Positions 8,579 through 58,588 of a DNA stretch of 64,000 nt are shown in pieces. Numbering within the stretch: the stretch's first letter is position 1; each line of letters begins with the position of its first letter. Source of the DNA: an uncultured Clostridia bacterium (GTDB taxonomy: Bacteria; Bacillota; Clostridia; Christensenellales; UBA1242); the NCBI GenBank assembly GCA_934777505.1, contig CAKVNM010000001.1:28977-92976 (forward strand). Direction: 5' to 3'. The notes beneath the pieces were generated by a model. It was not told the origin of the DNA, did not search any database, and saw only the letters and a program-made list of their open reading frames with translations. Both the position numbers and the translations under genes were made by a program.

Positions 8579-8603
8579 TTTTCTTGAAATAGTAGTTGAA
8601 AAG

Positions 8604-39835: not shown

Positions 39836-40138
39836 ATGAAAAAGGAAATTAACCAAAAACGATTTTTTAGCGCAATGGCTTTTGTTGCCATAACTTTTCT
39901 TGCAGTAGCATTGCTTGTTAGTTTGATTGCATCAAAACTTGGCAGTGACGGGCAAGATGTGTTTTCGCAAATCGCCAATGTTATAAAACAAATTGCTCAG
40001 GCACTAGCGTATATTTGTGCGTGCATATCGGCTTTTGGATTTGTTAGAAGCAAACGAAACTCAGTCTATATGATACTTTATATTATCGTGTGCATTATGA
40101 TTGCAGTGTTTGTTATTTTGCCACTATTTGGAATTTAA
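39836..40138 (+). CDS. Small membrane protein, unknown function
   Basis: 100 aa, three hydrophobic segments, SD AGGAGA. Confidence 0.55.
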   Translation: MKKEINQKRFFSAMAFVAITFLAVALLVSLIASKLGSDGQDVFSQIANVIKQIAQALAYICACISAFGFVRSKRNSVYMILYIIVCIMIAVFVILPLFGI

Positions 40139-40148
40139 GGAGTTAACT

Positions 40149-40535: not shown

Positions 40536-40643
40536 AAACTACAAATTTTGCAACTAATGTTGTCATTAATTGGTTGCAAATTTTTTTATTTATGATATAA
40601 TAATCAAGTTTAAAGTCACACCTAGGTGATAAAAGGAGATAAA

Positions 40644-41921: not shown

Positions 41922-41989
41922 TTTAAAAAACTCCAAAGATAAATTTAAAAAGCACCAAAGATTTTTAAGTTTATTAAAGGAGTTTTTTT

Positions 41990-42571
41990 ATGCTTATACC
42001 TTATGTAGTAGATTCCACCATGTGTGGCGAAAGAAGTTACGATATCTATTCAAGATTGCTTGAAGATAGGATTATTTTTTTAACAGGCGAAGTAACAACC
42101 GAACTTGCCAACACTATTATTGCTCAAATGCTGTTTTTGGAAGGCAAGGATTCTAGTAAAGACATTTCGCTCTATATCAACTCACCGGGTGGGGTTGTTG
42201 ATGCAGGGCTAGCAATTTTGGACACAATGAATTACATCAAGTGCGATGTTTCCACAATTTGTGTTGGTATGGCGGCGTCTATGAGTGCGGTGCTTCTTAG
42301 TGCAGGAACAAAAGGAAAACGCTACTGCTTGCCACATTCAAGAATTATGATTCATCAGCCACTTGGAGGAGTTCAAGGACAGGCAATCGATATTAAAATT
42401 CAAGCCGAGCAAATTTTAAAAATGAAAGACAGTCTTAACAAAATACTATCTAATGCAACAGGAAAAAGCGAGAAACAAATTGAGCAAGACACAAACCGAG
42501 ATTACTATTTAACGAGCGATGAAGCCTTGGCGTATGGAATAGTCGACAAGGTTTTAACAAAGAGAGTTTAA
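41990..42571 (+). CDS. clpP: ATP-dependent Clp protease proteolytic subunit
   Basis: Ser motif [10 protein letters not shown]; His motif [10 protein letters not shown]. Confidence 0.96.
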
Positions 42572-42581
42572 GGAGCAATAT

Positions 42582-43862
42582 ATGAACAAAATATCAAACA
42601 TGATTTGCTCGTTTTGTGGAAAAGAACAAAATCAAGCATTAAAATTTATCGCAAGTCCCAACGGCTCGTGCTTTATTTGTGACGAGTGCGTACAAATTTG
42701 TTCGAGCATTTTAAAGGAAAGTTCAAAAACCGAACTTGGATTAAAACTCATCAAGCCCGAAGAAATCAAAAAGCATCTCGACAACTATATTATCGGTCAG
42801 GACGAAGCCAAAAAAGTGCTTAGTGTTGCGGTGTATAATCACTACAAAAGGCTGAGATATAACGAAAGCACTTCTAAAACCGACAAGGTGGAACTTGATA
42901 AAAGCAATGTTTTGCTTATTGGTCCAACGGGTAGCGGAAAGACACTCCTTGCCAAAACACTCGCAAAAATTTTAAATGTGCCATTTGCTCACGCTGATGC
43001 AACAACTTTGACCGAAGCAGGCTATGTTGGCGAAGATGTTGAAAGCATTTTGACAAAACTAATTCAAAGTGCGGGCGGAGATATCAAGAAAGCCGAAAAA
43101 GGCATTGTGTATATTGACGAAATCGACAAAATTGCCAAGCGAGCCGAAAACAAATTGCTTCCAAAAGACCCTTCGGGCGAAGGTGTGCAACAAGGACTAC
43201 TAAAAATTATCGAAGGCACGATTGCAAGTGTTCCAGAAAAGACTAGCCGAAAGACTCCTTTTCAAGAAACTGCTAGCATAGACACGAGTAATATTTTGTT
43301 TATTTGTGGCGGAGCGTTTGTTGGACTAGAAAATATCATAAAGGACAAAAAACTGAAAAAATCACTTGGCTTTAATAACAATATTGAGCAAGAAAACCAG
43401 CAAATTTCTAGTGACGAAATCGAACCGCAAGACTTAATCAAGTTTGGACTAATTCCAGAATTTGTTGGCAGATTGCCAATAGTTGTTAGCCTGCAAAAAC
43501 TTGACGAAACCGCTCTTGTAAAAATCCTTACTGAGCCAAAAAATTCACTCGTAAATCAATACAAAACAATGTTCCAAATTGACGGAATAGACTTTGAAGT
43601 AAAAGAGCAAGCCCTAAAACAGATTGCCCTAAAAGCCATAAAACTAGAAAGCGGAGCAAGGGGACTAAGAAGCATTTTTGAAAAAACAATCATGAACAGT
43701 ATGTACTATTTGCCAAGCGATAGTAGCATTAAAAAACTAGTGCTTGATGTTGACGAAAACAACTGCGTTAAGGTGCTAAAATTTGACGAGAAAAGCCTTA
43801 GTAAAAATCAAAACATTGCCCTAAAAGGCAAAGATTCGTCCGTTAACTATGTTCAAGTTTGA
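42582..43862 (+). CDS. clpX: ATP-dependent Clp protease ATP-binding subunit ClpX
   Basis: Zinc finger CSFCGK...CFICDEC; Walker [12 protein letters not shown]; ClpP-docking loop LGF present. Confidence 0.96.
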
Positions 43863-43923
43863 TTTTTAATTTAATCAAAAACAAAGTGGCAAAAAAGCAA
43901 AAATTTTTTGCCATATTTATTGC

Positions 43924-43952
43924 TTGCCAACTTTTGGAAAATCTACTATAAT
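43924..43952 (+). promoter_or_regulatory. Sigma-A type promoter of lon
   Basis: TTGCCA (43924-43929), 17-nt spacer, TATAAT (43947-43952). Confidence 0.6.
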
Positions 43953-43987
43953 GTGTGTATTATTTTAAATTTGGAGAAACTATATTT

Positions 43988-46288
43988 ATGGCAGTAAAAC
44001 AATACAAAGCAATTTCAATCATGGGAGTAGTGAGTTTTCCAAAAATGCCTATTGCGTGCGAAGTTAGAAGACAAGCCAGCAAAGAAGCTGTTTTGGAAGC
44101 ATCAAGAAACAAAGAAGAAATTATTTTGGTTACTCAAATCACAAACACAATCGGTGACGATTTTTTGGCTTGCGTAAACCATATTGGAACTGTTTGTACA
44201 ATCCAAAAAGTTACAACAACAAATAGTAGCGTAAAATTGGTTGCGGACGGAGTAAAAAGAGTTAGGATTGTGGGAGTTAACAAGGATTCTCAGTTTTTGA
44301 CTGTTGAAGCCGAAGATGTTGAACCTATCGTTTACAACTCGCCAGAAGAACACTTGCTTTTTGAGTCTGTAAAAAATGCAGTAATTGATTTTAGTGCAAG
44401 CAATTTTTCAATCAAGCCAGAAGTGATTAATATCTTGAATAACACAGACGATATCAATACTTTTGTTGATTATTCTGCAATAATTTTACTAAAAGACGAA
44501 AACAAACAACTTGCTTTATTAAACGACTTCGACACAATGAGTAGACTAACAAAACTCAGTGCTTATGTTAACGAAGAAGTAGAAATCATAAAACTCAACA
44601 AAAAACTCAGCGAAAAAGTAAAACAAAATATGGATAAAAACCAAAAAGAGTTTTATCTTCGTGAGCAAATGAGAGCAATCAGCGAAGAACTTGGCGAAGG
44701 CACAAGTATGTTTGACGACTATGAAAAACGAATCAACGCCCTAACACTTTTACCAGAAACCAAAGAGAAAGTTATGAAGGAACTTGCTAGACTTAGAAAA
44801 CTTCCTAGTGCTTCGCCAGATTTTTCAATTCTTCAAAACTACATAGAAACCTTCCTTGACTTGCCATGGGGAAAATATACCCAAGACAACAAGGATTTGA
44901 AAAAAGCAAGAGAAATTTTGGATAGTGACCATTCGGGACTAGAAAAAGTTAAGGACAGAATTGTTGAAAACCTTGCAGTTATGCAGTTAACTGGGAAAAT
45001 CAGCGGGCAAATTATCTGCTTTGTTGGACCACCGGGAGTTGGAAAAACAAGTATTGTAAAGAGCATTGCAAGAGCGTTAAATCGTAATTTTGTTAAAATG
45101 AGCGTTGGCGGAGTTAAGGACGAAAGCGAAATTCGTGGTCACAGAAAGACCTATGTTGGAGCAATGCCGGGCAGAATAATCTACAATATGATTATGGCAA
45201 AGAGCATGAATCCAGTTTTCTTGATTGACGAAATCGACAAAATGGCAAGCGACTATCGTGGCGACCCAACAAGTGCGTTGCTCGAAGTTTTAGACCCAGA
45301 ACAAAACACAATTTTCAGGGACCATTTCCTAGAAGTTCCTTTTGATTTGAGCAATGTTTTGTTTATTGCAACCGCTAACAATATTGGCGATATTCCAGCA
45401 CCATTACTTGATAGAATGGAAGTTATCGAATTGTCGTCATATACAACTAGCGAAAAGTTTAGAATTGCAAAAGAACACTTAATTCCAAAAGAAATTCAAA
45501 AAAATGGACTAAAACCAGAACAAATTTGCATTACAGACGAAGCCTTGAATGACATTATCGAGCAGTATACTTTTGAAGCAGGCGTTAGAAATTTGGAACG
45601 ACAAATCGGCACAATCATGAGAAAAGTGGCTGTAAAGATTATTACCGAAAACGATAGTAGCAAGTGCTACAAAGTTTTGCCAGAAAACTTGCAAGAATAT
45701 TTGGGCGCTCACAAAATTATTCGTGACGAAAAACGCCCATTTGCAGAAGTTGGTGTTGTTAGCGGACTATCATATTCGACTGTTGGCGGTGGAGTACTTT
45801 CTATAGAAGTTAACAAGGTTCTTGGGGACGGTAAGGTGGTTCTAACAGGACGACTTGGCGATGTTATGCAAGAAAGTGCAAGAGCAGCGCTATCTGCTGT
45901 TATTGGAATTGCGGAAAAATACAATATCGACCCACAATTATTTAGAAAGAGCGATATTCACATTCATGTGCCAGAAGGTGCAGTAAAAAAAGATGGACCA
46001 AGTGCTGGTTCTGCTTTGGCAACAGCAATTTTTAGTGCGTTCTCAGGCAAAAAAGTCGACAATAATCTTGCCATGACTGGCGAAATTACTATTCGTGGAA
46101 ATATTTTGGCTATCGGCGGACTAAAAGAAAAATTGTTCGCTTGCGTTAGAGCAGGAATAACAAAAGTCCTTGTTCCATCGCAAAACAAAGAAGATGTTTT
46201 GGATTTGCCAAAAGAAATCACAGACAATTTGAATATTGTGTATGTTGACACTTTGGAACAAGTGCTAGCAAATGCAATTATTGATTAA
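43988..46288 (+). CDS. lon: Lon protease (LonA)
   Basis: LON N-domain; Walker A GPPGVGKTS; protease Ser motif KDGPSAG; SD GGAGA favours ATG 43988. Confidence 0.95.
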   Translation: MAVKQYKAISIMGVVSFPKMPIACEVRRQASKEAVLEASRNKEEIILVTQITNTIGDDFLACVNHIGTVCTIQKVTTTNSSVKLVADGVKRVRIVGVNKDSQFLTVEAEDVEPIVYNSPEEHLLFESVKNAVIDFSASNFSIKPEVINILNNTDDINTFVDYSAIILLKDENKQLALLNDFDTMSRLTKLSAYVNEEVEIIKLNKKLSEKVKQNMDKNQKEFYLREQMRAISEELGEGTSMFDDYEKRINALTLLPETKEKVMKELARLRKLPSASPDFSILQNYIETFLDLPWGKYTQDNKDLKKAREILDSDHSGLEKVKDRIVENLAVMQLTGKISGQIICFVGPPGVGKTSIVKSIARALNRNFVKMSVGGVKDESEIRGHRKTYVGAMPGRIIYNMIMAKSMNPVFLIDEIDKMASDYRGDPTSALLEVLDPEQNTIFRDHFLEVPFDLSNVLFIATANNIGDIPAPLLDRMEVIELSSYTTSEKFRIAKEHLIPKEIQKNGLKPEQICITDEALNDIIEQYTFEAGVRNLERQIGTIMRKVAVKIITENDSSKCYKVLPENLQEYLGAHKIIRDEKRPFAEVGVVSGLSYSTVGGGVLSIEVNKVLGDGKVVLTGRLGDVMQESARAALSAVIGIAEKYNIDPQLFRKSDIHIHVPEGAVKKDGPSAGSALATAIFSAFSGKKVDNNLAMTGEITIRGNILAIGGLKEKLFACVRAGITKVLVPSQNKEDVLDLPKEITDNLNIVYVDTLEQVLANAIID

Positions 46289-46301
46289 CAAAGGAAAAAA
46301 T

Positions 46302-47336
46302 ATGGACATTTATTCAAGAAAAACTTATTATTACGACTTGCCAGAAGAATTAATCGCACAAACTCCTGTTGAGCCAAGAGACCACAGCAGAATGTTGGTG
46401 TATGACAGACAGAACGACACAATCAATCACAAACATTTTTATGATGTTATTGATTATCTAAACAAGGGCGATATTTTGGTTGTTAACAATACAAAAGTTT
46501 TGCCTGCAAGACTATATGGAACAAAAGTTTCGACTGGTGCAAAAGCAGAAGTGTTTTTGTTAAAAAAACAGTCGCTTGATGTTTGGGAAGTGCTTTTAAA
46601 GCCACAAAAACGACTAAAAGAAGGCACAATCATTGAATTTTCAAAAGATTTTTCGTGCGAAGTTGTAAAAAACTTTGACCACGGTAATGCAGTTGTAAAG
46701 TTTTCGCATAACGGAACTTTTGAAGAAAACTTGCTAAAAGTTGGAACTATGCCACTTCCGCACTATATTCACGAAAAACTAAAAGACAGCAATAGATATC
46801 AAACAGTTTATGCAAAAACAGAAGGCAGTAGTGCAGCGCCAACTGCTGGACTACATTTTACGCCAGAACTACTTGAAAAAATCAAGCAAAAGGGAATAGA
46901 AGTGTGCGAAGTTTTGCTTCATGTTGGACTTGGAACTTTTAGGCCAGTTAGTGAAGATAATATTTTAAAACACGATATGCATACTGAGTATTATGAAATA
47001 ACTCAGGAAGTTGCAGACAAAATCAACAATGCAAAAAAACAAGGTCACAAAGTTATTGCCGTTGGCACAACAAGCGTTAGAACGCTTGAAAGTGTTGCGT
47101 CAAAGTTTGACGGCGAATTAAAGGCAGACAAGGGCGAAACAAATATTTTTATCTACCCCGGCTATAAGTGGAAAATTGTTGACCACCTAATCACAAATTT
47201 TCATCTTCCAGAAAGCACTTTGATTATGCTTGTTAGCAGTTTTTGTGGAATTGAAAACACTCTAAAATTCTATAACGAAGCCGTAAAGGAAAAATATAGA
47301 TTTTACTCCTTTGGGGACGCTTGTTTGATTTTATAA
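46302..47336 (+). CDS. queA: S-adenosylmethionine:tRNA ribosyltransferase-isomerase
   Basis: YDLPEELIAQTPVEPRDHSRMLV N-terminus and GTTSVRTLES. Confidence 0.95.
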   Translation: MDIYSRKTYYYDLPEELIAQTPVEPRDHSRMLVYDRQNDTINHKHFYDVIDYLNKGDILVVNNTKVLPARLYGTKVSTGAKAEVFLLKKQSLDVWEVLLKPQKRLKEGTIIEFSKDFSCEVVKNFDHGNAVVKFSHNGTFEENLLKVGTMPLPHYIHEKLKDSNRYQTVYAKTEGSSAAPTAGLHFTPELLEKIKQKGIEVCEVLLHVGLGTFRPVSEDNILKHDMHTEYYEITQEVADKINNAKKQGHKVIAVGTTSVRTLESVASKFDGELKADKGETNIFIYPGYKWKIVDHLITNFHLPESTLIMLVSSFCGIENTLKFYNEAVKEKYRFYSFGDACLIL

Positions 47337-47360
47337 CCTAAGTTTTGCTTAGGTTTTTTT
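47335..47360 (+). terminator. Rho-independent terminator
   Basis: aacctaag / cttaggtt stem, 5-nt loop, 7-T run. Confidence 0.75.
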
Positions 47361-47409
47361 AAAATTCCCTTGTTAAAATTTTTAAAATATGTTAATCTCT
47401 ATTAGATAA

Positions 47410-48558
<1,149 letters not shown>

Positions 48559-48652
48559 TTTGTCGAAACTTTAACTTTATTTAAAACAAGCGGTTAAAAA
48601 TTGTTGCAAAAATATTCGCATTAATGATAAAATTAACCCAAGGAGAAAAATT

Positions 48653-49114
48653 ATGTCAATGTTATTAGAAAACACATCAAATCCAGGATTTTTTGAAAAA
48701 TATGGTTTGCTTATTATTTTAGTTGTTATGATTATCGCAATGTTTGTTTTCAACTTTTTGCGTCAAAAAAAATATCAACAACAAGAAGCAAAAATGCTTG
48801 AAGATATCAAAGTTGGAACAAAAGTTAAAACTTATGCAGGCGTTTATGGAACAATCGTTGGAATGTACGACTCAACAGACGGCAAAGTTGCTATTTTGTC
48901 ACTAGACGGCAAAGCAACTATGGAAGTTGATTTTAGGTCTATCTATGTTATCGACAACAAAACAGAAGTAACTGCTGAAAAGACAGAAGAAAACGCAGAA
49001 GAAGTCAAGGCAGAACCAGTTGCAGATGCAAACAAAGAACCTAAACAAGAAGACTCAAAACCAGCAGAAGAGCCAAAAGCAAAGAAAGCCAAAAAAGAAA
49101 AAAATCAAGATTAA
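48653..49114 (+). CDS. yajC: Preprotein translocase subunit YajC with a long charged C-terminal tail
   Basis: TM, then KKYQQQEAKMLEDIKVGTKVKTYAGVYGTIVG YajC core; about 50-aa K/E/A/P tail. Confidence 0.85.
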   Translation: MSMLLENTSNPGFFEKYGLLIILVVMIIAMFVFNFLRQKKYQQQEAKMLEDIKVGTKVKTYAGVYGTIVGMYDSTDGKVAILSLDGKATMEVDFRSIYVIDNKTEVTAEKTEENAEEVKAEPVADANKEPKQEDSKPAEEPKAKKAKKEKNQD

Positions 49115-49127
49115 TAAAAAAACACTA

Positions 49128-49164
49128 CCGTTAGTCAATACTAATTGAAACTAGCGGTTTTTTT
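49128..49164 (+). terminator. Rho-independent terminator after yajC
   Basis: ccgttagt (49128-49135) / actagcgg (49150-49157), one G-U pair, 14-nt loop, 7-T run. Confidence 0.7.
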
Positions 49165-49274
49165 AATAGCATATTTGAAAGTTACAGAGAGTATATTCTT
49201 GGATATGATTGTCTTTGTAAAAATGCTTTATTTAATTAAATGATTAGTTCGTTAAATTTTTATACTAAAATTTA

Positions 49275-49303
49275 TTGACAATCAGTCAAAATTATATTAT
49301 ATT
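49275..49303 (+). promoter_or_regulatory. Sigma-A type promoter of the islet
   Basis: TTGACA (49275-49280), 17-nt spacer, TATATT (49298-49303). Confidence 0.6.
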
Positions 49304-49332
49304 ACTCTTGTAGTAAATTGGAGAGAAAGCTT

Positions 49333-49596
49333 TTGAATTATCTTGTTAACAATGAATTCTATTTTGAAGTATTTGATGATGGAGATGTGATGGCATGTGG
49401 TAAGGCTATCCCAAGGAGTTTCATACTAAATAAAACGACTTGGTATGTTATCCAATTATTTAATTGCATTACTTCATATGGAAATGCAAAGGAAAAATTT
49501 ATTAACCATTATAATAGAGATAAAATATTCCTTTCGGACGAATTTGAAAAGATTTTTAAGAATTTACTAAAAAATGAAATTATAATAGGAGTTTAA
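49333..49596 (+). CDS. PqqD-like RiPP recognition element (RRE) protein, stand-alone
   Basis: About 87 aa; SFILNKTTWYVIQLFNCITSYGNAKEKFINHY...LSDEFEKIFKNLLKNEII fits the PqqD pattern (LNetaa.i..l.dG..t..e....l...y....l..d...fl..L...g.i). The track start 49318 (TTG-GAG) lies in the SD GGAGAG; TTG 49333 has 7-nt spacing. Confidence 0.55.
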   Translation: MNYLVNNEFYFEVFDDGDVMACGKAIPRSFILNKTTWYVIQLFNCITSYGNAKEKFINHYNRDKIFLSDEFEKIFKNLLKNEIIIGV

Positions 49597-49597
49597 T

Positions 49598-49789
49598 ATG
49601 GAAAATTATGAAGAAGCTTTGCTTGAAGAAATGTCATTAGAAGAATGTAATTATTCCAATGAATGTACAGTTGTTTGTACTTATATGTATGGTTATTGTG
49701 GTGAAGCTGAAGGTTGGGGTACAATTTACTGCCCAGAATGGGGGTCACCTTCAACTAATGATTCAGATGATGACGATTCGGATGATTAG
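49598..49789 (+). CDS. Putative RiPP precursor peptide (63 aa, 5 Cys, 8 aromatic, 18 acidic, 0 basic residues)
   Basis: MENYEEALLEEMSLEECNYSNECTVVCTYMYGYCGEAEGWGTIYCPEWGSPSTNDSDDDDSDD; ideal SD AGGAG 6 nt upstream inside the end of the RRE gene; 1 nt after the RRE stop; directly upstream of the rSAM gene. Confidence 0.65.
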   Translation: MENYEEALLEEMSLEECNYSNECTVVCTYMYGYCGEAEGWGTIYCPEWGSPSTNDSDDDDSDD

Positions 49790-49816
49790 AAGTTGTTTAT
49801 ATATGGAATGTAAGAT

Positions 49817-50875
49817 ATGAATAAATTAAAAAGTATGTATATTGAAGTGACATCAGTGTGCAACATGAACTGCCCTTATTGCTATAATAATTCAGGCTGT
49901 AAAGGTACTTATTTAGATAAGAAATATGTTTTTGATTTAATTGATCAATGTTATAAAAATAAAATTTCTGAAATAACTATTTCTGGTGGAGAACCGTTTT
50001 TACATCCTAATATAATGGATTTTATTAAATACGCAAATAATAAACAAATACATGTTAGGATTATTTCGAATTTATCAACCATTAAAACAGATACTGCTAT
50101 TGAGATATTAAAACATGGTAATTATTTTCAGTTAACATTAGACTCTACAGATGAAAAAGAAAATGATTCTATTCGAGGAAAAGGATGTTACAAAAAAATT
50201 ATTGAGTTATTAGAAAAAGCAAAAAAAGTTAATTTATCTAAAAGAATAGTTCTGAGAATGAATTTAAGTAAAAAAAATGTTAACAAAATTGACTCTTTTA
50301 TTAATTTGTCGATATTTTATGGAGTCAAACATGTTTCTATCGCATTTATTGCGAATTGTGGAAGAGGACAAGAGTATGAATATGCGTTTAGTTATCAACA
50401 TACATTATCTGAAATGATAGGCATAATGGAAAAACTTAAAGTGTTATCCATTAAATTAAAAGAAACTATAGATATATCGTATAATAATTTAGAAGAACAA
50501 AGAAGTTGTCCGCTTTTTAATTTAGGTGACATAGAAATTAATCCAAGAATTGACCCTAATGGCAATGTTTTCTTTTGTGGTTATTTTTTTGGTGAAGAGA
50601 ATTCTCTTGGTAATATCTCAAATAATAGTGTTGATGAAATTATTAATTCTAAAGATTTTCATTGTTTTAAGGAAAAAGTTCAGAAAAGAAAACAAAATAA
50701 TAAGTGTGAGGTTTGTCTTTTTAATAAAATATGTTCGTGTGGTTGCCCTGCAATATCTTTCATGAATACGAATAATATTTTTAATATTGATAATCAATGC
50801 AAAATGATTAAATATTTTATTAAAAATAATTTTAGAAAAAAAAGAGGATTGCTTAATAATAAAAATGAAAGATAA
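49817..50875 (+). CDS. Radical SAM enzyme with C-terminal SPASM domain (peptide-modifying maturase type)
   Basis: CNMNCPYC (Cx3Cx2C) at residues 15-22; GGEP SAM-binding motif; SPASM-like Cx17Gx4C ... CEVCLFNKICSCGC (Cx2Cx5Cx3C) ... C. Confidence 0.85.
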   Translation: MNKLKSMYIEVTSVCNMNCPYCYNNSGCKGTYLDKKYVFDLIDQCYKNKISEITISGGEPFLHPNIMDFIKYANNKQIHVRIISNLSTIKTDTAIEILKHGNYFQLTLDSTDEKENDSIRGKGCYKKIIELLEKAKKVNLSKRIVLRMNLSKKNVNKIDSFINLSIFYGVKHVSIAFIANCGRGQEYEYAFSYQHTLSEMIGIMEKLKVLSIKLKETIDISYNNLEEQRSCPLFNLGDIEINPRIDPNGNVFFCGYFFGEENSLGNISNNSVDEIINSKDFHCFKEKVQKRKQNNKCEVCLFNKICSCGCPAISFMNTNNIFNIDNQCKMIKYFIKNNFRKKRGLLNNKNER

Positions 50876-51452
50876 ATGGTTGATAGTTGGACTTGGGAAT
50901 CCTGGTAGAGAATATATCTCAACTAGGCACAATGCCGGATTTATAGTTGTTGATGAAATACTGAAAGACTTAAAATATAGTCATGAAATCAAGAAATTTG
51001 ATGGATTAATTTATAAAACAATAATTAATAATACGATATGTTTTTTTTTAAAACCTCAAACTTATATGAATAATAGTGGGACATGTGTTTACAATGTTGC
51101 ACATTATTATAAGATTCCTTTGGATAAAATTATTATATTGACCGATGATATAAATTTTAAAGTTGGTAAAATAAAAATAAAACAGAATGGATCAGCTGGT
51201 GGACATAAAGGAATAAATAGTATTATCGAAACATTTAAAACTAATAAGTTTACTAGAATTAAAATAGGTGTTAATGATAAACCGAGTAAATTTATTGATC
51301 TGAAAGATTGGGTTGTTAGTAACTTTTCTATGGATGAAATAAAAGATATTAAACATTGTTCTGAAGCAATTATTGATATAATACAATTAGCACTTGAAAA
51401 TAATATACAAATGGCAATGAATAAATATAATGGGACAAATGTTGTTTTGTGA
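50865..51452 (+). CDS. pth: Peptidyl-tRNA hydrolase
   Basis: LIVGLGNPGREYISTRHNAGF, YMNNSG, TDDINF, GGHKGINS; 11-nt overlap with the rSAM gene; composition matches the islet. Confidence 0.88.
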   Translation: MKDKWLIVGLGNPGREYISTRHNAGFIVVDEILKDLKYSHEIKKFDGLIYKTIINNTICFFLKPQTYMNNSGTCVYNVAHYYKIPLDKIIILTDDINFKVGKIKIKQNGSAGGHKGINSIIETFKTNKFTRIKIGVNDKPSKFIDLKDWVVSNFSMDEIKDIKHCSEAIIDIIQLALENNIQMAMNKYNGTNVVL

Positions 51453-51495
51453 ATTATAAGTGCCTTTGTCCCTGTTTTTTTATTTCGCAAATTTC

Positions 51496-51525
51496 AAAAA
51501 CACTATCAAAACGATAGTGTTTTTT
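51496..51525. terminator. Bidirectional terminator (pth / convergent membrane gene)
   Basis: Perfect 12-bp stem aaaaacactatc (51496-51507) / gatagtgttttt (51513-51524), 5-nt loop. Confidence 0.85.
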
Positions 51526-51532
51526 GTTGCTT

Positions 51533-51925
51533 TTATTTTTTAACATTCACTCCAATCACTCCGCAAATTGCACCAGTTAGTAATCCAAACACAAGGTCAA
51601 TCAAAATTGTAACATCAAACTTGAATTGTCCGTTTAAAATAGAGAACACAACAAATGCTAAAATGGTGTAGAGAAAGCCAATAACAAGACCTTTAACCAA
51701 TCCTTTTTGCTTGTCTTTTTTGGTTACAAAAAGCACTCCAATCAAAATACTAAGCACTTTTATAACTTGATTTATGGGTTTGATTAGTGTTTCGCTCATG
51801 TTTGTTAGTTTAATAAAAAAAGCAAACACAAGTATGCAAATCAAACTAACGCAAACGCTGATTAATGCCCCTTTTAAACAACTCAAAACGATATTTTTAT
51901 TCTCATTTTTTTTAACTTGTTCCAT
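51533..51925 (-). CDS. Small four-TM membrane protein (TIGR04086/YrzE-like)
   Basis: Start moved to ATG 51925 (SD AAGGAG); 130 aa; Gly-rich TM helices (GLVIGFLY, GLLTGAICGVIG). Confidence 0.6.
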   Translation of the reverse strand: MEQVKKNENKNIVLSCLKGALISVCVSLICILVFAFFIKLTNMSETLIKPINQVIKVLSILIGVLFVTKKDKQKGLVKGLVIGFLYTILAFVVFSILNGQFKFDVTILIDLVFGLLTGAICGVIGVNVKK

Positions 51926-52089
51926 TTTTTGCTCCTTATACTTTAATCTATGAACAAAAATAGCCAATTATGACTTATAAAAAATGCCAAAAATGTTAAG
52001 TATTTATTAATACTTGCTTAAAAAATTTGACTATAAAGCCTAATTAATATATACTTAATTAGAAATTTTGTTTATTAGGAGAACTAATC

Positions 52090-53421
52090 GTGAAAAAGAA
52101 AAGAGCAATACTAAATTTTGCTGGAATTATCTTTGTTTGCTTGTTGCTAGCGGTGTTATCGGTTGTTAGATTTACAATCCCTGGCACATACTACAAAGAA
52201 TATGTTGGATTTTTGAACGCTATCGAACTTGGAATTGATTACAAGGGTGGTACAACATTAGTCATCGAAGCAAAAAACAACTCAGCAGACTACACAAACT
52301 TTGCCAAGGGCGTTGAAGCACACGCACTTAGAATAAAAGGTATTTTGGCTGACAACAATTACAATAGCAATGTTTACACAACGCTAGGAACAAGTTTGGT
52401 TATGGAAATCTTTGACGAATACGACACAGATGCAATCAGTGATTTAATCAGTGCGACAAACAACAAACTTGCAATTAGAACTGAAAACAGCACAACTGGC
52501 GAAGTTTACTTGACTCAGGACGATATCGAAGACGCTTATGCAATGGAAAACGGCTATTATGGCTACACAAACACTTCAAGATATGGTGTTTATGTAAAGT
52601 TTACACAGCATGGCAAAGAACAAATCAAAACTATCACTTCGGGTGCTTCTTCAAACAGTAAAAAAACACTTTACTTCTTTATTGGAGATTCGCTATTTCA
52701 ACAACTTCCTGTAAGTGAAGAAGTCGACCAAGATTATATCTTTATTTCTGGCGGAAGCACTCTTAACACAAAAGACGGAGCAGACCAATACGCTGGAAAA
52801 CTTCTTTCAACAAAATATGACTACACTTTTGAGCAAAAATCAAAAACAGTCATTCAAGCAGATGTTGCACAAAGAAATTTGATTTTGTCACTTGTTATCA
52901 CAGCAGTTATCATTGTTGCTAGCATGATTATGCTAATCGTTAGATTTAAAAAACTTGGACTTGTAAACTGCCTAGCACTTATTGTTGGAGTACTACTTCA
53001 AATCATTATGCTTCAAGCAGTTCCAGGAATTGTTATCACAGCGCAAGCATTTATGGGTTCTGTACTCACTTATGTTCTTGGCTTTGGCATGATTTACTAT
53101 ATGCTCAGCAAAATGGCTGGCGAGTACGCACAAGGGAAGAAGGCACATTCAAGTTTCAAATTTGGTTTCTTAAAAAACTATATGCCACTTGTTGAACTTT
53201 CTGTAAGTTATCTTGTAGCAAATATTATTTTCTACATCTTTGGCTCAACCGCAGTTAAGTACTTTGCTTTTGCTTCCATTATTGGAATAGTTATTTATGG
53301 ACTATGTGCAATCTTGGTTTCAAAATTGTTTAACAAACTTTGCTTGAATATCTATCAAGAAAAAGTTAAGAATTATGGATTTACAAGGGAGGCAAATGTT
53401 CATGAACTCGAAGAAATTTAA
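52090..53421 (+). CDS. secD: Protein translocase subunit SecD
   Basis: GTG start after SD AGGAGA; N-terminal TM, periplasmic-type domain (GIDYKGGTTLVIEA), C-terminal 5-TM bundle. Confidence 0.88.
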   Translation: MKKKRAILNFAGIIFVCLLLAVLSVVRFTIPGTYYKEYVGFLNAIELGIDYKGGTTLVIEAKNNSADYTNFAKGVEAHALRIKGILADNNYNSNVYTTLGTSLVMEIFDEYDTDAISDLISATNNKLAIRTENSTTGEVYLTQDDIEDAYAMENGYYGYTNTSRYGVYVKFTQHGKEQIKTITSGASSNSKKTLYFFIGDSLFQQLPVSEEVDQDYIFISGGSTLNTKDGADQYAGKLLSTKYDYTFEQKSKTVIQADVAQRNLILSLVITAVIIVASMIMLIVRFKKLGLVNCLALIVGVLLQIIMLQAVPGIVITAQAFMGSVLTYVLGFGMIYYMLSKMAGEYAQGKKAHSSFKFGFLKNYMPLVELSVSYLVANIIFYIFGSTAVKYFAFASIIGIVIYGLCAILVSKLFNKLCLNIYQEKVKNYGFTREANVHELEEI

Positions 53422-54055
53422 TGTGTACAAAAATGCAGTATACTTTGATATTGCTAGCGGAATTTTACTAATTGCAGGACTTGTTGTTGGACTTATCTTG
53501 GGACTTAATAGTGATGTCAAGATTGCAAGCAGTTCAATTTTGAACACAACTCTTGCAGTTCTAATTTTTGAAATCATTTTGCTAATTTATGTAACAGTAA
53601 AATATGATTTCTACACAGCCTTTACAATGGTTTTGGCGGTTTTACACAATGTTATGTTAACAGTTGCACTTGTTTGCATTTTTAGAATTCCTGTTACAGA
53701 CAGTTTGACCACCGCTATTATGATTGTTACAGGACTCACAGCGGTTAACTTATTTATCCTATTCACTGGCAAGCCAGATTATAAATCAACAACCAACAGA
53801 GAATCAATGGTTAACGACTTGGTTTCTAGCAAGTTGAAAACTTTGGTTTTGCTAAATTGCACAATTTTGGTTACAGTTATTGCAATGATATTCACATTTA
53901 ACACAAACATTGTTATGCTAGTAAGACCACTTTTGATTGGAATTGTAGTAACATTTTATAGCACAGTATTTATGTGCGCACCATTCTGTGGTTACTTTAT
54001 AAAAGAGAAAAAACAAAGAAAACAAGTTGATTTAGAACAAGATTATGTTAAGTAA
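53402..54055 (+). CDS. secF: Protein translocase subunit SecF
   Basis: Six-TM SecF-type C-terminal bundle following secD; SD AAGGGAGG at 53385; the start is ambiguous among 53375, 53396 and 53402. Confidence 0.8.
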   Translation: MNSKKFNVYKNAVYFDIASGILLIAGLVVGLILGLNSDVKIASSSILNTTLAVLIFEIILLIYVTVKYDFYTAFTMVLAVLHNVMLTVALVCIFRIPVTDSLTTAIMIVTGLTAVNLFILFTGKPDYKSTTNRESMVNDLVSSKLKTLVLLNCTILVTVIAMIFTFNTNIVMLVRPLLIGIVVTFYSTVFMCAPFCGYFIKEKKQRKQVDLEQDYVK

Positions 54056-54057
54056 AA

Positions 54058-54089
54058 ATTAGCCACTTTGATATAAGTGGCTAATTTTG
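54058..54089 (+). terminator. Rho-independent terminator
   Basis: attagccactt / aagtggctaat 11-bp stem, 6-nt loop, short T-run. Confidence 0.7.
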
Positions 54090-54122
54090 TAAAGAGAGAG
54101 ATGAAGGAAAAATGTATATTAT

Positions 54123-56477
54123 ATGTTATTTAGACAAAAAAAGATAGAAGTTAGTGATGATGAAATTAATAACCTTAGCAAGCAAATAAACCACTCGTTT
54201 GTGGTTACAAAAATTTTGGTCGCTCGTGGATATGATACAGTAGAAAAAATACAAAAGTTCTTACACCCAAAACTCAGCGATTTGCACGACCCATTTTTGC
54301 TTAAAGATATGAAAACCGTTTGCGATAAAATCAAAAACGCCATTCAAACAAAAAAGAGAGTTTTGATTTTTGGTGACTACGATGTTGACGGAATTAGTGC
54401 AACGGCAATTTTATATAAATATTTTGAGTCAAAAGGATTAAAAGCCAACTACTTTTTGCCAAATCGATACGAAGACGGCTATGGACTCACAATCGAAACC
54501 GCAAAAAAAGTTATCGAACTATATAATCCAGAACTTGTTATCACAGTTGACTGCGGAATTTCTTGTTATAAAGAAGTTGACTTTTTACTCAGTCATGGCG
54601 TTGATGTTTGTGTGACAGACCACCACGAAATCCCAGAAATTTTGCCTGCTTGTCCAACTATTGATGCAAAGCAAAGCGGTCAACCATATCCTTTTACAGA
54701 CCTTTGTGGAGCGGGTGTTGCGTTAAAAATCGTGCAAGCACTTGGTGAAGACATAACCAGTTATCTGCCAATTTGTGCAATCGCAACAATCGCCGATATT
54801 GTTAGTTTGACGGACGAAAACAGAGCAATCGTAACTTATGGACTCAAAAACTTAAATTTGCTTCCATTTGGATTAAAACAACTTTTTGCCGAACTAAAAA
54901 TTTCAAAAGTTAATAGCAGTGATATTGCATTTAAAATTGCTCCAAAAATCAATGCGGCGGGCAGAATGGGAGATGCAACAATATCGCTTCAACTATATAT
55001 TTCAAGCGACAAAAAAGTTGTTGAAGAAAACTTAAAAAAATTAACCGAAATGAACCTTAAAAGGCAGGAACTTTGCACAAAAATCTATGCCGATGCGGTT
55101 AATTTGTTAAAGCAAGAAAATCAAAACGACAGACGCTCCATAATTCTTTACTCAAACGAGTGGGACAGTGGATTACTTGGGATTGTTTGTGCAAGACTCA
55201 CCGAAGAATTTAACAAGCCAACTTTCTTGTTTAGCGAAGTTGACGGCTTTTTAAAAGGCTCAGTAAGAAGTATTCCAGCCATAAATATTCATGATGCTTT
55301 GTCCAAGGCAAGCACACTTTTGGAAACCTTTGGCGGTCACTCCATGGCAGCGGGACTCACTTTAAAATTTGAGCATTTAACCAAGTTTAAGTACGAAATT
55401 GAAAACTACTTTTTAAAGAATTTTTCTCAGCGAGATTTTGTTGCTATAAAGGAATATGATATTCAAATCGGCAGTGAGCAGGTTAATCTTGCCCTTGCCA
55501 GAGAACTTGAAGTTTTAGAACCATTTGGTTGTGGAAATCCAAAGCCACTATTTTATACCAAACACGGCAATTTGAAAGTGTCCACCATGAAAAATTATGC
55601 TCAGCACTTAAACATTGTTACGCCAGACAACTTGCCACTTATTGCGTTCAATATGGGTGGTCAAAAGGACTTAATCGAGAATAGTTATGTTTGCGAACTT
55701 ATGTATGAACTTCAACTCAACGAGTTCAAAAACAGATATTATGTTAAGGGACTGATTAAAAACCTTAAATGCTCAGGCTATAAGGACAGTCTAAGCAATT
55801 ATGTTGAAGGAAATTATATCGAACAACTTGTTTTGAACAAGCAGAGCAACAAAAATCCATTTTATAGTTACGACAATCTAAATTTTGTTTTAAACAAACT
55901 TTCCGCAAAATCGTCATACGGCACATTGCTTGTTTGTAACGACCTAAAAACTGCAAAAAATTTAAGCGTATTTTTGTATACGCACAGTTATGATTTCCAC
56001 CTGGGCGAAATCAAGTCAAATTCAACGAATAACGCCATTGTTGTTGGTTTAAATAGTTATAATAACATAACGAATTATAGCAACATAGTATTTCTTGAAC
56101 CTTTGCTTAACATGGACTATTTGAACAACTTTAAAGGCTCGTTATATTTGCCAAAAAATCACGAAGTTAATCTTGCTCTTAGCGTGGATTTAAGTCACGA
56201 AATGTTTAGCAATTTCTACAAAAATTTGCTTGGGGTTATGGACAAAATCATAGTTGCCAGCAAGTTTGATTATTATCAGGGATTTAAAAGGCTCGTGCCA
56301 GTTTTTAGAAATATTAGTTATGCACAATTTGTGGCTTGTGTTAACACATTTTTAGAACTTGGATTCATAACAGAAAACAAAGATAATGGATACACATTGT
56401 CATTAAATAGCGTAAAAGAAAAACGAGAACTTTCTTCGTCTAAACTTTATGCTAGACTAGCGAACTTAATCTCTTAA
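54123..56477 (+). CDS. recJ: Single-stranded-DNA-specific exonuclease RecJ
   Basis: DHH motifs IFGDYDVDGIS, TVDCG, VTDHHE; DHHA1 GGHSMAAG. Confidence 0.93.
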   Translation: MLFRQKKIEVSDDEINNLSKQINHSFVVTKILVARGYDTVEKIQKFLHPKLSDLHDPFLLKDMKTVCDKIKNAIQTKKRVLIFGDYDVDGISATAILYKYFESKGLKANYFLPNRYEDGYGLTIETAKKVIELYNPELVITVDCGISCYKEVDFLLSHGVDVCVTDHHEIPEILPACPTIDAKQSGQPYPFTDLCGAGVALKIVQALGEDITSYLPICAIATIADIVSLTDENRAIVTYGLKNLNLLPFGLKQLFAELKISKVNSSDIAFKIAPKINAAGRMGDATISLQLYISSDKKVVEENLKKLTEMNLKRQELCTKIYADAVNLLKQENQNDRRSIILYSNEWDSGLLGIVCARLTEEFNKPTFLFSEVDGFLKGSVRSIPAINIHDALSKASTLLETFGGHSMAAGLTLKFEHLTKFKYEIENYFLKNFSQRDFVAIKEYDIQIGSEQVNLALARELEVLEPFGCGNPKPLFYTKHGNLKVSTMKNYAQHLNIVTPDNLPLIAFNMGGQKDLIENSYVCELMYELQLNEFKNRYYVKGLIKNLKCSGYKDSLSNYVEGNYIEQLVLNKQSNKNPFYSYDNLNFVLNKLSAKSSYGTLLVCNDLKTAKNLSVFLYTHSYDFHLGEIKSNSTNNAIVVGLNSYNNITNYSNIVFLEPLLNMDYLNNFKGSLYLPKNHEVNLALSVDLSHEMFSNFYKNLLGVMDKIIVASKFDYYQGFKRLVPVFRNISYAQFVACVNTFLELGFITENKDNGYTLSLNSVKEKRELSSSKLYARLANLIS

Positions 56478-56488
56478 AAGGAGGAATT

Positions 56489-58588
56489 ATGGAAGAATTT
56501 TTACAAAACTATAAATCAATTTTTTCAAACGAACAGTTTGAAAATTTTTCGGCACTTTGTTCACATCTTTGTGGACTAGACGAAACAGAAAAAGTGTTTA
56601 CAAAATCAAAAGATATTTCTAACCTAATTTTGCCTTTAAAACTGGACTTTGAGACATATTCTGCTTGCATGATTTTGCCATATCTAAGAGAAAATATTGA
56701 CCTAAAATTTGACGAAAATATGACCAATATTTTTAATGGAAGCGTTGATATTGCAAAGACTGTTATCAAAATTTCCAATTTGGATTACACCAATCAGCAA
56801 ACAGAAACCGAAAATGTTAGAAGTATGTTGATTGCCATTGCAAAAGATATTAGGGTTATGATTGTAAAACTTGCAGAAGTTTTGTATCTTGCTCGTCACA
56901 CAAGAGAATTATCTCACGAAGACGCCGAAAAATTGCATTTTGAAATCAGGGAAATTTACTCGCCAATCGCTTCTCGTTTGGGGCTATCTTATGTTAAGTC
57001 GGAACTCAACGACCTAAACCTTTCGTACTTTAAGCCAAACGAATACAAAAAACTGCTCAAACAAGTGGCAGAAGATAGCAGAAATGGCAAGGAAAGACTA
57101 GATAGAGTTATCGAAAAAATCAAACAAATTATGCAAAACCTTAACATAAAAGGTGACTGCTATGGCAGGGTTAAGCATATTTCAAGCATATACAACAAGT
57201 TGAAAGAAAAGGGCAAAACCTTAACTCAAATTTTTGACCTTTGTGCTTTAAGGGTTATTGTTCCAACTCAAAACGATTGCTATGCTATTTTGGGTGCAAT
57301 TCACACCGAATTTGTGCCAATTGATAGCAGATTTAAGGACTACATCGCTAGACCAAAAGCAAACGGATATCAAAGTTTGCATACAGTTGTACTAGTTGAC
57401 AATGAACCACTAGAAATTCAAATTAGAACGGCAGAAATGCACAATCACGCTGAGTATGGTATCGCAGCGCACTTTTTGTACAAGGAACACAAATCAAAAC
57501 TTGACAATCTTGACGACAAACTTTTGTGGATTAGAAAACTAATCGAAAGCAAGGATAACGAAAACGCTAGCGACCTTATCGACAGCCTTAAAACCGATGT
57601 TTATAGTGGAGAAATTTTTGTTCAATCTCCAATGGGAAAAATCGTTCAACTTGTTGAACAATCAACTCCTATCGACTTTGCTTATGCAATTCACTCGCAG
57701 GTGGGTAACAAGTGTGTTGGTGCAAGAGTTAATGGCAAAATGGTGCCTTTAACCACGCCACTTAACAACGGCGATGTGGTCGAAATTATAACCAACCAAA
57801 ACGCAAAAGGACCATCAAGAGATTGGTTAAAATTTGTTAAAACTGCCGGAACAAAAAACAAAATCAAACAATATTTCCGTCACGAGATGAAGGAAGAAAA
57901 CATCAAAAAAGGCAAATCAATTTTGGATTTGGCAGCCAAGAACAAGGGCTATAATCTCAAAGATTTGTTGAATGATGAAGCGATGATAGAAGTGTTTGAA
58001 AAATATGCGTTCCACAACGAAGACGAGATGTTAGCCGCAGTTGGCTACGGAAGTGTTACAAGCACGCAAATTATCAACAAACTTGTTGATGCATACAAGA
58101 AAAATCAGCCACAAACTTTGGAACTTAAACCTATTCAAGAAAAGGATTTGGAAAACACCGATATTGCAGAACTTGCGGGCATAATGGTCAAGTATGCAAA
58201 ATGTTGCAATCCAATTCCGGGGGACGATATTGTGGGATTTGTTTCTCGTGGCAGTGGTGTTACAATTCACAGAAGCGACTGCGTGGCTCTAAAATCACTA
58301 GAACAAGACCGTTTGATGCCAATCAGTTGGGGTAAAAATTCAGGTCAAAACTATGTTGCAAGTGTTAGACTTTTTGTTGATAACACACCGGGTGTTTTGG
58401 CAACGATTTCTGGAAAGATTGCAGAAAACAAAATCAATATCACAAAAATTGTCAGCACCCCAAGTGACCACGAAGAAGCAACGATTGACATTTCGTTCTA
58501 TGTTAGCGGAAAGGAAGAACTTGACGACTTTATCAAAAAAATGCAATCACTTTCGATTGTTCACTCAGTTGTTAGAGGAGGAAACTAA
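56489..58588 (+). CDS. relA: Long RelA/SpoT homologue: (p)ppGpp synthetase with apparently degenerate hydrolase domain
   Basis: Synthetase core GRVKHISSIYNKL, DYIARPKANGYQSLHTVV, EIQIRTAEMHNHAEYG; TGS and ACT domains present; HD metal ligands not found (see findings). Confidence 0.88.
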   Translation: MEEFLQNYKSIFSNEQFENFSALCSHLCGLDETEKVFTKSKDISNLILPLKLDFETYSACMILPYLRENIDLKFDENMTNIFNGSVDIAKTVIKISNLDYTNQQTETENVRSMLIAIAKDIRVMIVKLAEVLYLARHTRELSHEDAEKLHFEIREIYSPIASRLGLSYVKSELNDLNLSYFKPNEYKKLLKQVAEDSRNGKERLDRVIEKIKQIMQNLNIKGDCYGRVKHISSIYNKLKEKGKTLTQIFDLCALRVIVPTQNDCYAILGAIHTEFVPIDSRFKDYIARPKANGYQSLHTVVLVDNEPLEIQIRTAEMHNHAEYGIAAHFLYKEHKSKLDNLDDKLLWIRKLIESKDNENASDLIDSLKTDVYSGEIFVQSPMGKIVQLVEQSTPIDFAYAIHSQVGNKCVGARVNGKMVPLTTPLNNGDVVEIITNQNAKGPSRDWLKFVKTAGTKNKIKQYFRHEMKEENIKKGKSILDLAAKNKGYNLKDLLNDEAMIEVFEKYAFHNEDEMLAAVGYGSVTSTQIINKLVDAYKKNQPQTLELKPIQEKDLENTDIAELAGIMVKYAKCCNPIPGDDIVGFVSRGSGVTIHRSDCVALKSLEQDRLMPISWGKNSGQNYVASVRLFVDNTPGVLATISGKIAENKINITKIVSTPSDHEEATIDISFYVSGKEELDDFIKKMQSLSIVHSVVRGGN

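Follow-up and report, generated by a model that had tools for sequence, protein, structure and literature searches.

In the present study, a four-gene operon of 2,378 bp was analyzed in a 64,000-nt stretch (hereafter the window) of contig CAKVNM010000001.1 from a human-gut Clostridia species, and it was found to be a horizontally acquired unit that varies between strains. Very probably the unit is a cassette for a RiPP, a peptide that is made by the ribosome and modified after translation; it encodes a discrete RiPP recognition element (RRE, here protein A), a short cysteine-rich precursor peptide, a radical S-adenosylmethionine (rSAM) enzyme with a SPASM domain and, as its last gene, a peptidyl-tRNA hydrolase (Pth). 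The initial annotation of the window had recognized the architecture of a radical-SAM RiPP pathway, and this is upheld here by the fold of the RRE, the conservation of the precursor and the rSAM/SPASM motifs. The cassette appears to be a rare new family built on known RiPP logic, and what is new in it is the constant and unexplained coupling to pth. Below, L-numbers denote loci or contigs compared with the window, and P-numbers denote individual proteins.

Insertion Site and Composition of the Operon

The inserted unit occupies positions 49130–51507 on the plus strand and is absent from other contigs of the same species. The Tgt sequence of the window was found, identical, on 12 contigs; in its 90% cluster there is also a protein bearing the name of Candidatus Apopatousia equi (Christensenellales). 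Of the 12 contigs, L046 matches the window identically and contains all four genes, and five others (L045, which is 246 kb long, L047, L048, L049 and L050) present an empty site, where yajC is followed by ~40 nt and then by a DUF3792 gene, with the cassette and pth both missing between them. BLASTN aligned positions 1–9709 of L045 with window positions 39420–49127 on the left (98.2% identical) and positions 9700–17140 of L045 with window positions 51496–58938 on the right (97.9% identical), so that 10 nt of L045 are used twice, by the left and by the right segment. The junction alignment with the conspecific contigs revealed that the empty site is one bidirectional terminator hairpin, the left arm of which, AAAAACACTA[C/T]C, is found at both ends of the insert as a 12-nt direct repeat. 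The left copy, AAAAACACTACC, at 49118–49129, is the left arm of the empty-site hairpin according to both the junction alignment and BLASTN, while the right copy, AAAAACACTATC, at 51496–51507, lies inside the original bidirectional terminator that is common with the DUF3792 gene. With one copy of the repeat counted, the inserted block thus measures 2,378 bp. The initial annotation had proposed a comparison of the yajC–secD interval in related genomes, and the comparison with conspecific contigs yielded an exact insertion. The block starts ~145 nt before a promoter (49275–49303) and ends 43 nt past pth, which matches a complete operon.

The foreign composition suspected initially was confirmed both by the empty site and by the base content. 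The insert has a G+C content of 25.8%, against 35.6% in the rest of the window; in 300-nt windows the values are 22–32% inside the unit and 35–44% in tgt and secD, and the G+C content at third codon positions is 16–23% in the four cassette genes compared with 24–39% in four neighbouring genes. Two features of a genomic islet were thus observed, namely an empty site in close relatives and a deviant composition, but not the third, a mobility gene: no integrase or transposase was found in the insert, which holds four genes only. Neither a protease nor an exporter nor an immunity gene lies inside it, as had been annotated. The viral contigs searched contained no relative, the phage records searched contained no relative of the enzyme above 27% identity and the plasmids searched none above 32%, and carriage by a phage or a plasmid was rejected on these grounds. 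Compared with the L064 cassette, the window unit shows 81.6% DNA identity from just 5′ of the −35 hexamer (window position 49260) to the contig end inside pth, so the four genes travelled together, and there is little doubt that the cassette was acquired as one four-gene block.

The Precursor Peptide

The four open reading frames (ORFs) have the coordinates and the spacing initially annotated, with a gap of 1 nt between protein A and the peptide, a gap of 27 nt between the peptide and the rSAM enzyme and an overlap of 11 nt between the rSAM gene and pth. The precursor gene (49598–49789, plus strand) encodes 63 aa with five Cys. It gave no Pfam or NCBIfam match at E ≤ 1 and fits no curated precursor family. 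On the basis of the alignment and of the charge table, it was divided into a leader of residues 1–22 (49598–49663, plus strand) with a net charge of −8 and a family-invariant Tyr4, a core of residues 23–48, CTVVCTYMYGYCGEAEGWGTIYCPEW (49664–49741, plus strand), with four family-invariant Cys, and an acidic C-terminal tail, GSPSTNDSDDDDSDD, which together with the stop codon occupies 49742–49789 (plus strand) and has counterparts in about half of the family.

When 5.8 billion clusters were searched with a profile, a precursor family of 16 clusters was retrieved, all of them unnamed, and a metagenome scan at JGI with the peptide added one further locus, L056. The family shares the 26-residue core C-[T/E/D]-V-[V/K/E]-C-T-Y-M-[Y/F]-[G/A]-Y-C-x4-G-W-G-T-T-[Y/H]-C-P-x-W, which as a whole is nearly invariant, with strict invariance of the four Cys and of most aromatic positions, whereas the leaders vary except for Met1 and Tyr4. 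When nine loci were compared, the proportion of synonymous differences (pS) in the 26 core codons was 0.26–0.95 and that of non-synonymous ones (pN) 0.02–0.20, which means that the ORF is translated and under strong constraint. The peptide is thus a short ORF that is conserved beside its maturase and evolves as a coding sequence, as a RiPP precursor should be. Two subtypes were observed. Seven members, including that of the window, are acidic, with a leader net charge of −1 to −15 and a tail of 10–20 residues containing 4–14 Asp/Glu, and eight members have a near-neutral leader and no acidic tail. The neutral members of known context (L037, L040/L057, L056 and L061) keep pth in all four cases.

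The strings of the core motif had no match in the searchable literature, and no NCBIfam cut-off was reached by the enzyme, so that the description of the cassette as unclassified still stands. Judged by its sequence, the precursor represents a rare, previously undescribed family. In spliceotides, tyramine is excised at an X-Tyr-Gly motif by a PlpX-type reaction. A splicease of this kind was considered for the M-Y-G of the window peptide and rejected, for the same site reads M-Y-A or M-F-A in P0081, P0082, P0084 and L056.

The RiPP Recognition Element

Protein A (49333–49596, plus strand) is a discrete protein of 87 aa with a TTG start and GGAGAG 6 nt upstream; an alternative start at 49318 would give 92 aa. 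It had been annotated as PqqD-like, and this designation found support in the fold, although the window protein itself has no Pfam or NCBIfam match at E ≤ 1, PF05402 (PqqD) included. Four of nine homologues of protein A do match PF05402, with a best E value of 2.2e-4, and a profile built from the distant RRE members, these four among them, recovered the window protein with 50 bits (E 1.4e-11 for a nominal million sequences). The AlphaFold model from the single sequence was poor, with a predicted local distance difference test score (pLDDT) of 51, and the model from a 6-sequence alignment reached a pLDDT of 94.4 and a predicted TM-score of 0.83. In the latter model, a three-stranded sheet and three helices form a winged helix that can be superposed on solved RREs. 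Foldseek placed TbiB1, solved with a leader peptide, at the top of the PDB matches (TM 0.82, root-mean-square deviation of 2.2 Å over 87 columns), with TfuB1 (TM 0.75), PqqD (TM 0.72) and the RRE domains of MccB, TigE, MadB, LynD, NisB and CteB further down, such that the matches are almost exclusively RiPP recognition elements. When the PDB was searched with a sequence profile of the RRE family, TfuB1 came up at E 0.58 and otherwise glutathione transferases. Taken together, the modelled fold supports protein A as a PqqD-like RRE, though the Pfam model does not. As regards the proposed binding of the leader, what was observed is that the two genes are adjacent and that Tyr4 is conserved in the leaders.

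The RRE family is tiny, with ~6 true relatives among 1.84 billion cluster representatives, and the ratio of non-synonymous to synonymous substitution rates (dN/dS) of protein A is ~0.20. In the search of the representatives, a protein of 133 aa, P0239, was encountered, in which an A-type RRE (residues 1–66) is joined straight to an internal rSAM segment (…DQCKKNNISEIIISGGEPFLHP…). From its sequence, this apparently stems from a decayed cassette copy in which the SAM-cluster motif and the gene for the peptide have been lost.

The Radical SAM/SPASM Enzyme

The third gene (49817–50875, plus strand) encodes a maturase of 352 aa without a fused RRE. Its annotation as an rSAM/SPASM enzyme was borne out by matches to PF04055 Radical_SAM (1.9e-24, 87.2 bits, with a gathering score of 29.5) and to PF13186 SPASM (4.2e-10, 40.2 bits, with a threshold of 21.5). 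The SAM-cluster motif CX3CX2C is present as C15-X3-C19-X2-C22, and the SPASM cysteines are complete (C231, C254, C297-X2-C300-X5-C306-X3-C310 and C328), as needed for two auxiliary 4Fe-4S clusters. All 76 NCBIfam matches of the enzyme are below threshold, the best being MftC (TIGR03962) with 104.8 bits versus a cut-off of 265, together with StsB (102 bits versus 625), AlbA (59 versus 850), PapB (75 bits) and PqqE (TIGR02109, 72.7 versus 381). The SCIFF maturase model (TIGR03974) is not among the best 25 of the 76 matches, none of which reaches its cut-off, and with neither the TIGR03973 precursor model fitted by the peptide nor the TIGR03974 model by the enzyme, the pair does not belong to SCIFF or the ranthipeptides as these models define them. 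By sequence, the nearest PDB structures are SkfB (3.4e-11, the best) and PqqE. Thioether chemistry is suggested by the Cys-rich core and by the relative that ranks best among the structures, though the architecture is of the PQQ/mycofactocin type (PQQ, pyrroloquinoline quinone).

The enzyme family comprises ~18 members with 37–100% identity, all unnamed. Its closest annotated relatives, at 32% identity over 93–97% of the protein, lie on Clostridium perfringens plasmids in conventional loci of an rSAM enzyme, a peptide and an ATP-binding cassette (ABC) transporter. Among the GTDB species-representative genomes, only remote rSAM proteins were retrieved with the enzyme (21–44% identity over the best aligned segment) and no cassette. 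Two loci of the enzyme family contain other cores. In L038 (5520–6004), the core has repeated C-G-K-G-x-x-F-T-C units and the peptide gene precedes the RRE gene, and in L042 (1460–1624) the core reads C-Q-N-A-Y-C-P-K-G-D-S-Y-T-C-G-R-G; both are without pth. The different cores indicate that the enzyme family serves at least three precursor types.

Conservation of the Cassette and Its Linkage to pth

The initial annotation had named, as a possible refutation, that the small ORFs might not be conserved next to homologues of the rSAM enzyme. In fact, the peptide accompanies the rSAM gene in all loci that were examined, even where enzyme identity falls to 37%, and the RRE is present wherever the contig reaches 5′ of the peptide, L040 and L056 beginning too near to it. 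The fourth gene (50865–51452, plus strand) encodes 195 aa and is pth as annotated, since it scored 180.7 bits with TIGR00447 against a cut-off of 100, matched Pfam Pept_tRNA_hydro and contains the Pth motifs GLGNPG, TRHNAG (with the catalytic His), MNNSG and DD. Its dN/dS is ~0.15–0.19.

In all eight chromosomal neighbourhoods with a CTVVC-type core, pth lies 3′ of the rSAM gene, which it overlaps or follows within 4 nt in seven cases. The neighbourhoods are those of the window and L034 (yajC on the left, the DUF3792 gene on the right), L035/L036 (ABC2 permeases, ftsA-ftsZ), L043/L044 (tyrS, helix-turn-helix (HTH) genes), L040/L057–L060 (a 942-aa protein, a 1040-aa protein and glyS), L056 (contig start, pflA), L061/L062 (rpsO, spoIVB), L064–L069 (DUF6442, contig end) and L037, which is a larger cluster with NTP_transf_5, a gene resembling HprK-related kinases, a signal-peptidase-I-like gene and two ABC exporters. 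Both outer junctions thus differ across the eight neighbourhoods, and the rSAM–pth junction is always retained. In L037, pth is located mid-cluster, between the HprK-like gene and the signal-peptidase-like gene, with the ABC exporters next, whereas L041, which has accessory genes homologous to those of L037 (55%, 33% and 31% identity), contains a different core and no pth. A tblastn search found no pth in L038 and L042 either, the two loci with other cores described above, and the linkage amounts to 8/8 for the CTVVC-type core versus 0/2 for the other cores of L041 and L038, in loci that are not independent observations.

The identities of rSAM and pth run in parallel (67/63, 67/61, 47/45 and 45/36%), and so does the silent divergence, with pS values of 0.46 for A, 0.49 for rSAM and 0.47 for pth against the nearest relative, and of 0.59, 0.68 and 0.67, respectively, against L035. 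The dN/dS of the three genes is 0.11–0.26, and with the constrained precursor all four genes of the unit show purifying selection. By these comparisons, pth is a fourth member of the unit, conserved and diverging in step with the rest, and no bystander; the initial annotation had given it too little weight. Literature searches found no relevant pairing of Pth with rSAM, RiPP, sactipeptide, ranthipeptide or SPASM systems; the only mention of Pth found in a RiPP context is as an unexplained neighbour of MNIO enzymes (PMC12452194).

In L057 (1–7624 and 10130–13252) and L040 (2837–5920), the cassette was also seen to be flanked by two very large proteins without Pfam or NCBIfam match, one of 942 aa and one of 1027–1040 aa (66% identity between the loci). 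About 11 small ORFs on the same strand, with HTH and SecB-like matches, precede the cassette there and resemble the early region of a mobile element.

Origin of pth

The cluster of the cassette pth occurs on only three contigs, compared with 12 for the Tgt of the species, of which at least five have the empty site. The gene is described as essential in bacteria (PMC9973355), and the strains with the empty site must therefore carry another pth, less than 90% identical. Almost certainly, then, the window strain, whose flanks are 98% identical to theirs, also has a second, native pth, as far as can be inferred. The closest pths other than the window's own (75–78% identity) stand alone in a genome of ~29% G+C. 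In its contig L053, the arrangement is P-type ATPase, pth, HTH genes and dnaA, and the pth is 82.6% identical at the DNA level to that of the window, which identifies a low-G+C relative as donor lineage.

Residues 111–115 of the window pth read GGHKG, a motif shared by its 31 closest relatives with one exception, while most Clostridia pths have GGHNG; the Lys occupies what we take to be the position of Asn114 in Escherichia coli. As a signature of the cassette the motif was rejected, since it is also found in the stand-alone gene of L053 and is absent from L056 and L061, and it is thus a lineage trait.

Signals and Neighbouring Genes

The sigma-70-type promoter TTGACA-17-TATATT (49275–49303, plus strand), proposed in the initial annotation as the operon's own, matches 11 of 12 consensus positions and is the best in 48900–51800. 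Both of the flanking terminators initially described were recovered, and they fold far more stably than shuffled controls (z scores). The yajC terminator hairpin with its T-run (49115–49165, plus strand) folds as RNA with −13.6 kcal/mol (z −3.98), consists mostly of inserted DNA and was missed by a simple terminator scan, and the bidirectional terminator at 51496–51524 folds with −12.9 kcal/mol (z −5.3). In a Logan assembly (L034/L046), pth was called with 268 aa (P0087) by reading its TGA stop as Trp. An alternative genetic code was rejected, as the over-long call runs past the stop at window 51450–51452 into the DUF3792 gene, which is encoded by the other strand, and the DNA of L034 is 100% identical to the window; the 268-aa pth is an artefact of the gene caller and not a recoded stop.

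The gene that adjoins the insertion site (51533–51967, minus strand) encodes a membrane protein of the TIGR04086/DUF3792 family (79 bits, cut-off 30), which is presumably the family found next to the radical-SAM peptide system SCIFF of Clostridia. In that case, the landing site of the new cassette would be the usual seat of another rSAM peptide system. A second radical SAM gene of the window (58588–59964, plus strand), directly after relA, was identified as HemZ (TIGR03994, 463 bits, cut-off 321), and a link of this unrelated gene to the cassette was rejected.

Proposed Mechanism and Rival Explanations

Overall, the evidence tips slightly toward an acquired four-gene operon that produces a new radical-SAM-modified peptide and has Pth as a functional partner. 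In this model, the operon would be transcribed from its own promoter at 49275–49303, and the 87-aa RRE would bind the leader of the 63-aa precursor and present the 26-residue core to the radical SAM/SPASM enzyme, which, with its SAM cluster and two auxiliary Fe-S clusters, would install intramolecular crosslinks. The most likely products would be thioethers from the four invariant Cys, of the sactionine or ranthionine type, and carbon–carbon or carbon–oxygen links to the conserved Tyr and Trp are an alternative. Pth, predicted to be catalytically intact and translationally coupled to the maturase, would add peptidyl-tRNA recycling capacity and so protect the producer from the action of the product on translation or on Pth, or alternatively from abortive translation of the precursor. 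That Pth is functionally coupled to the peptide system at all is, in our judgement, about evenly balanced, and the narrower proposal that it is a self-protection gene, with a crosslinked peptide that attacks Pth or provokes peptidyl-tRNA drop-off at the ribosome, is unlikely.

Several observations weigh against this explanation, and most of them agree with a passive linkage, by which the trio of protein A, peptide and rSAM genes became fixed upstream of the essential housekeeping pth in an ancestor among the low-G+C gut Clostridia, the overlapping frames and the shared promoter made the junction hard to break, and the window pth was simply carried along on transfer. The cassette-linked pths do not form a clade; they are lineage-typical, and the copies of L037, L040/L057 and L056/L061 are no nearer to one another than to ordinary Clostridia pths (44–51%). 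Nor was any cassette-specific residue signature found in Pth. In L064–L069, from a species of ~29% G+C, all six cassette contigs, which come from independent assemblies, break 80–175 nt into pth, and this 5′ part is 99–99.5% identical over 96–187 nt to L053 (6988–7174), the homology starting 13 nt before the ATG. The trio of L064–L069 is therefore fused to a pth that is indistinguishable from the stand-alone, presumably native copy of the species, and the breaks bear the mark of a fork in the assembly graph, which either two pth copies in one genome or two strain variants would produce. L053 itself shows a closely related pth at work without the trio. Its HTH gene pair to the right of pth (7790–8640) is common to L043 (5613–6174), which suggests that the L043 trio sits at the native pth locus. 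Several results thus allow that every host simply has its own housekeeping pth, upstream of which the trio has come to lie. Moreover, no second pth is seen within the 64-kb window, so that the native copy remains one that we infer, the type of crosslink is a guess from family resemblance, and a compact cassette without protease or exporter is awkward for a secreted antibiotic.

Passive linkage is accordingly a real possibility, though it falls short of probable, for it sits poorly with four observations. The outer junctions differ in all eight neighbourhoods but the rSAM–pth junction was kept through each of these rearrangements; pth lies mid-cluster in L037, and the pth-less homologue L041 has a different core; the window strain gained a pth along with the trio when its species was already provided with a different one; and the ends of the inserted block match a complete operon. 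The contrast of L037 with L041, the retained junction and the operon-exact block ends are what favours the functional model. A different function for the linkage would be the rescue of abortive translation, in which the Asp/Glu runs of the precursor (a leader of −8 and the tail DSDDDDSDD) destabilize the ribosome and a dedicated Pth frees the tRNA and perhaps releases the peptide. Acidic runs in nascent chains have been reported to cause intrinsic ribosome destabilization in bacteria (bioRxiv 10.1101/2022.01.27.477990, 10.1101/2021.02.02.429294), and the seven acidic members of the family have such leaders and tails. The eight near-neutral members stand against it, as the four of known context all retain pth, so that acidic runs are no general reason for the linkage; we consider this account decidedly unlikely.

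It is also conceivable that the product stays inside the cell, as a cofactor or signal scaffold of the PQQ or mycofactocin kind or as a retained modified mini-protein, and is not a secreted bacteriocin. The architecture is that of PqqA/D/E and MftA/B/C, with MftC as the best NCBIfam match, a nearly invariant core is combined with variable leaders, a pattern shared by cofactor precursors and SCIFF, and the compact cassettes have neither exporter nor protease. Yet tailoring enzymes comparable to PqqB/C/F or MftD/E/F are lacking, the scores of the cofactor-family models are far below their cut-offs, L037 with its ABC exporters and signal-peptidase-like gene points to secretion, and strain variability is unusual for a cofactor pathway, all of which makes an intracellular product fairly unlikely. 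Highly improbable is a cassette that is no RiPP system at all. On that reading, the rSAM enzyme would have some other substrate, and the 63-aa ORF would either be non-coding and arise by chance or encode a small Cys-rich protein that binds a metal or an Fe-S cluster. The chemistry is predicted only, and four invariant Cys could bind metal; against this, the RRE fold of the adjacent protein has no known role besides leader binding, peptide, RRE and rSAM co-occur wherever flanks are available, and the core is under strong purifying selection.

Significance of the Cassette

Among the main sources of new peptide chemistry are the radical-SAM pathways, and as producers the Clostridia of the gut have been explored too little. 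The unit described here is compact and delimited and could be cloned unchanged, and strains with and without it form a natural pair for comparison. The 26-residue core is almost frozen across enzymes that are only 45% identical, which implies a precise structure and a conserved target. If the coupling to pth is functional, a modified peptide would be linked to ribosome rescue and tRNA recycling, and the system could reveal a natural Pth inhibitor; in a 2025 review (PMC11906701), a synthetic compound, the only one listed, is called the first small-molecule Pth inhibitor. Should the self-protection proposal hold, the peptide would be the first natural product known to act on peptidyl-tRNA recycling, an essential and so far unexploited antibacterial target, and pth would become a genome-mining marker for such compounds. 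A passive coupling would still make the cassette a clear case of an accessory unit that spreads by capturing an essential gene.

Comparison with Known Systems

The nearest architectural counterparts are the PQQ (PqqA/D/E) and mycofactocin (MftA/B/C) systems, which likewise combine a short precursor, a discrete chaperone of ~90 aa with the PqqD fold and an rSAM/SPASM enzyme of ~350–390 aa without a fused RRE. The resemblance extends to MftC as the best NCBIfam match, to PqqE in both the NCBIfam and the PDB lists and to the TM of 0.72 between PqqD and protein A. However, the cassette enzyme scores far below the cut-offs of the two families (265 and 381 bits), the precursor lacks any PqqA-like sequence and terminates in ...DDDDSDD, not in the Gly-Val-Tyr of MftA, and the cassette has no downstream tailoring genes, while possessing a 26-residue four-Cys core and an attached pth.

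With the sactipeptide and ranthipeptide maturases (SkfB, AlbA, StsB, CteB/SCIFF and PapB), the cassette shares a Cys-rich core, a full SPASM domain and Clostridia as typical hosts. These enzymes are usually ~440–470 aa long with an N-terminal RRE domain, whereas the RRE of the cassette is a separate gene; in addition, no model cut-off is reached, the precursor matches no curated family, and none of these systems is reported with pth in the literature searched. The rSAM–peptide–ABC loci of C. perfringens plasmids (e.g., pCPPB-1, NC_015712.1) encode the enzyme with 32% identity mentioned above and an adjacent Cys-rich peptide of 50–54 aa, the leader of which, M-Y-E-K-P-I, recalls the Y-x-K/E-P start of the present family. 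In these loci, however, the enzyme carries an N-terminal extension and has 436 aa, the peptide has an unrelated core and lies 3′ of the enzyme, an ABC transporter comes next, and there is neither a discrete RRE gene nor pth.

Self-resistance by target duplication, in which a biosynthetic cluster carries an extra copy of an essential enzyme, is exemplified by inhibitors of aminoacyl-tRNA synthetases such as mupirocin. The cassette is comparable in that an essential translation-related enzyme is co-transcribed and moves with biosynthetic genes, but its Pth has no obvious substitutions of the resistance type, the activity of the product is only proposed, and the linked pth may be the sole copy in some cassette hosts. 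Closest in gene content are the clusters of the L037/L041 type with PqqD, HprK-related kinase and NTP_transf_5 genes. L037 has the RRE, the CTVVC-type peptide, the rSAM enzyme and pth, and it shares with L041 the NTP_transf_5 protein (55%), the HprK-related-kinase-A-like protein (33%; TIGR04352, weak), a signal-peptidase-I-like protein and ABC exporters, whereas the window cassette dispenses with the accessory genes and represents the minimal four-gene form.

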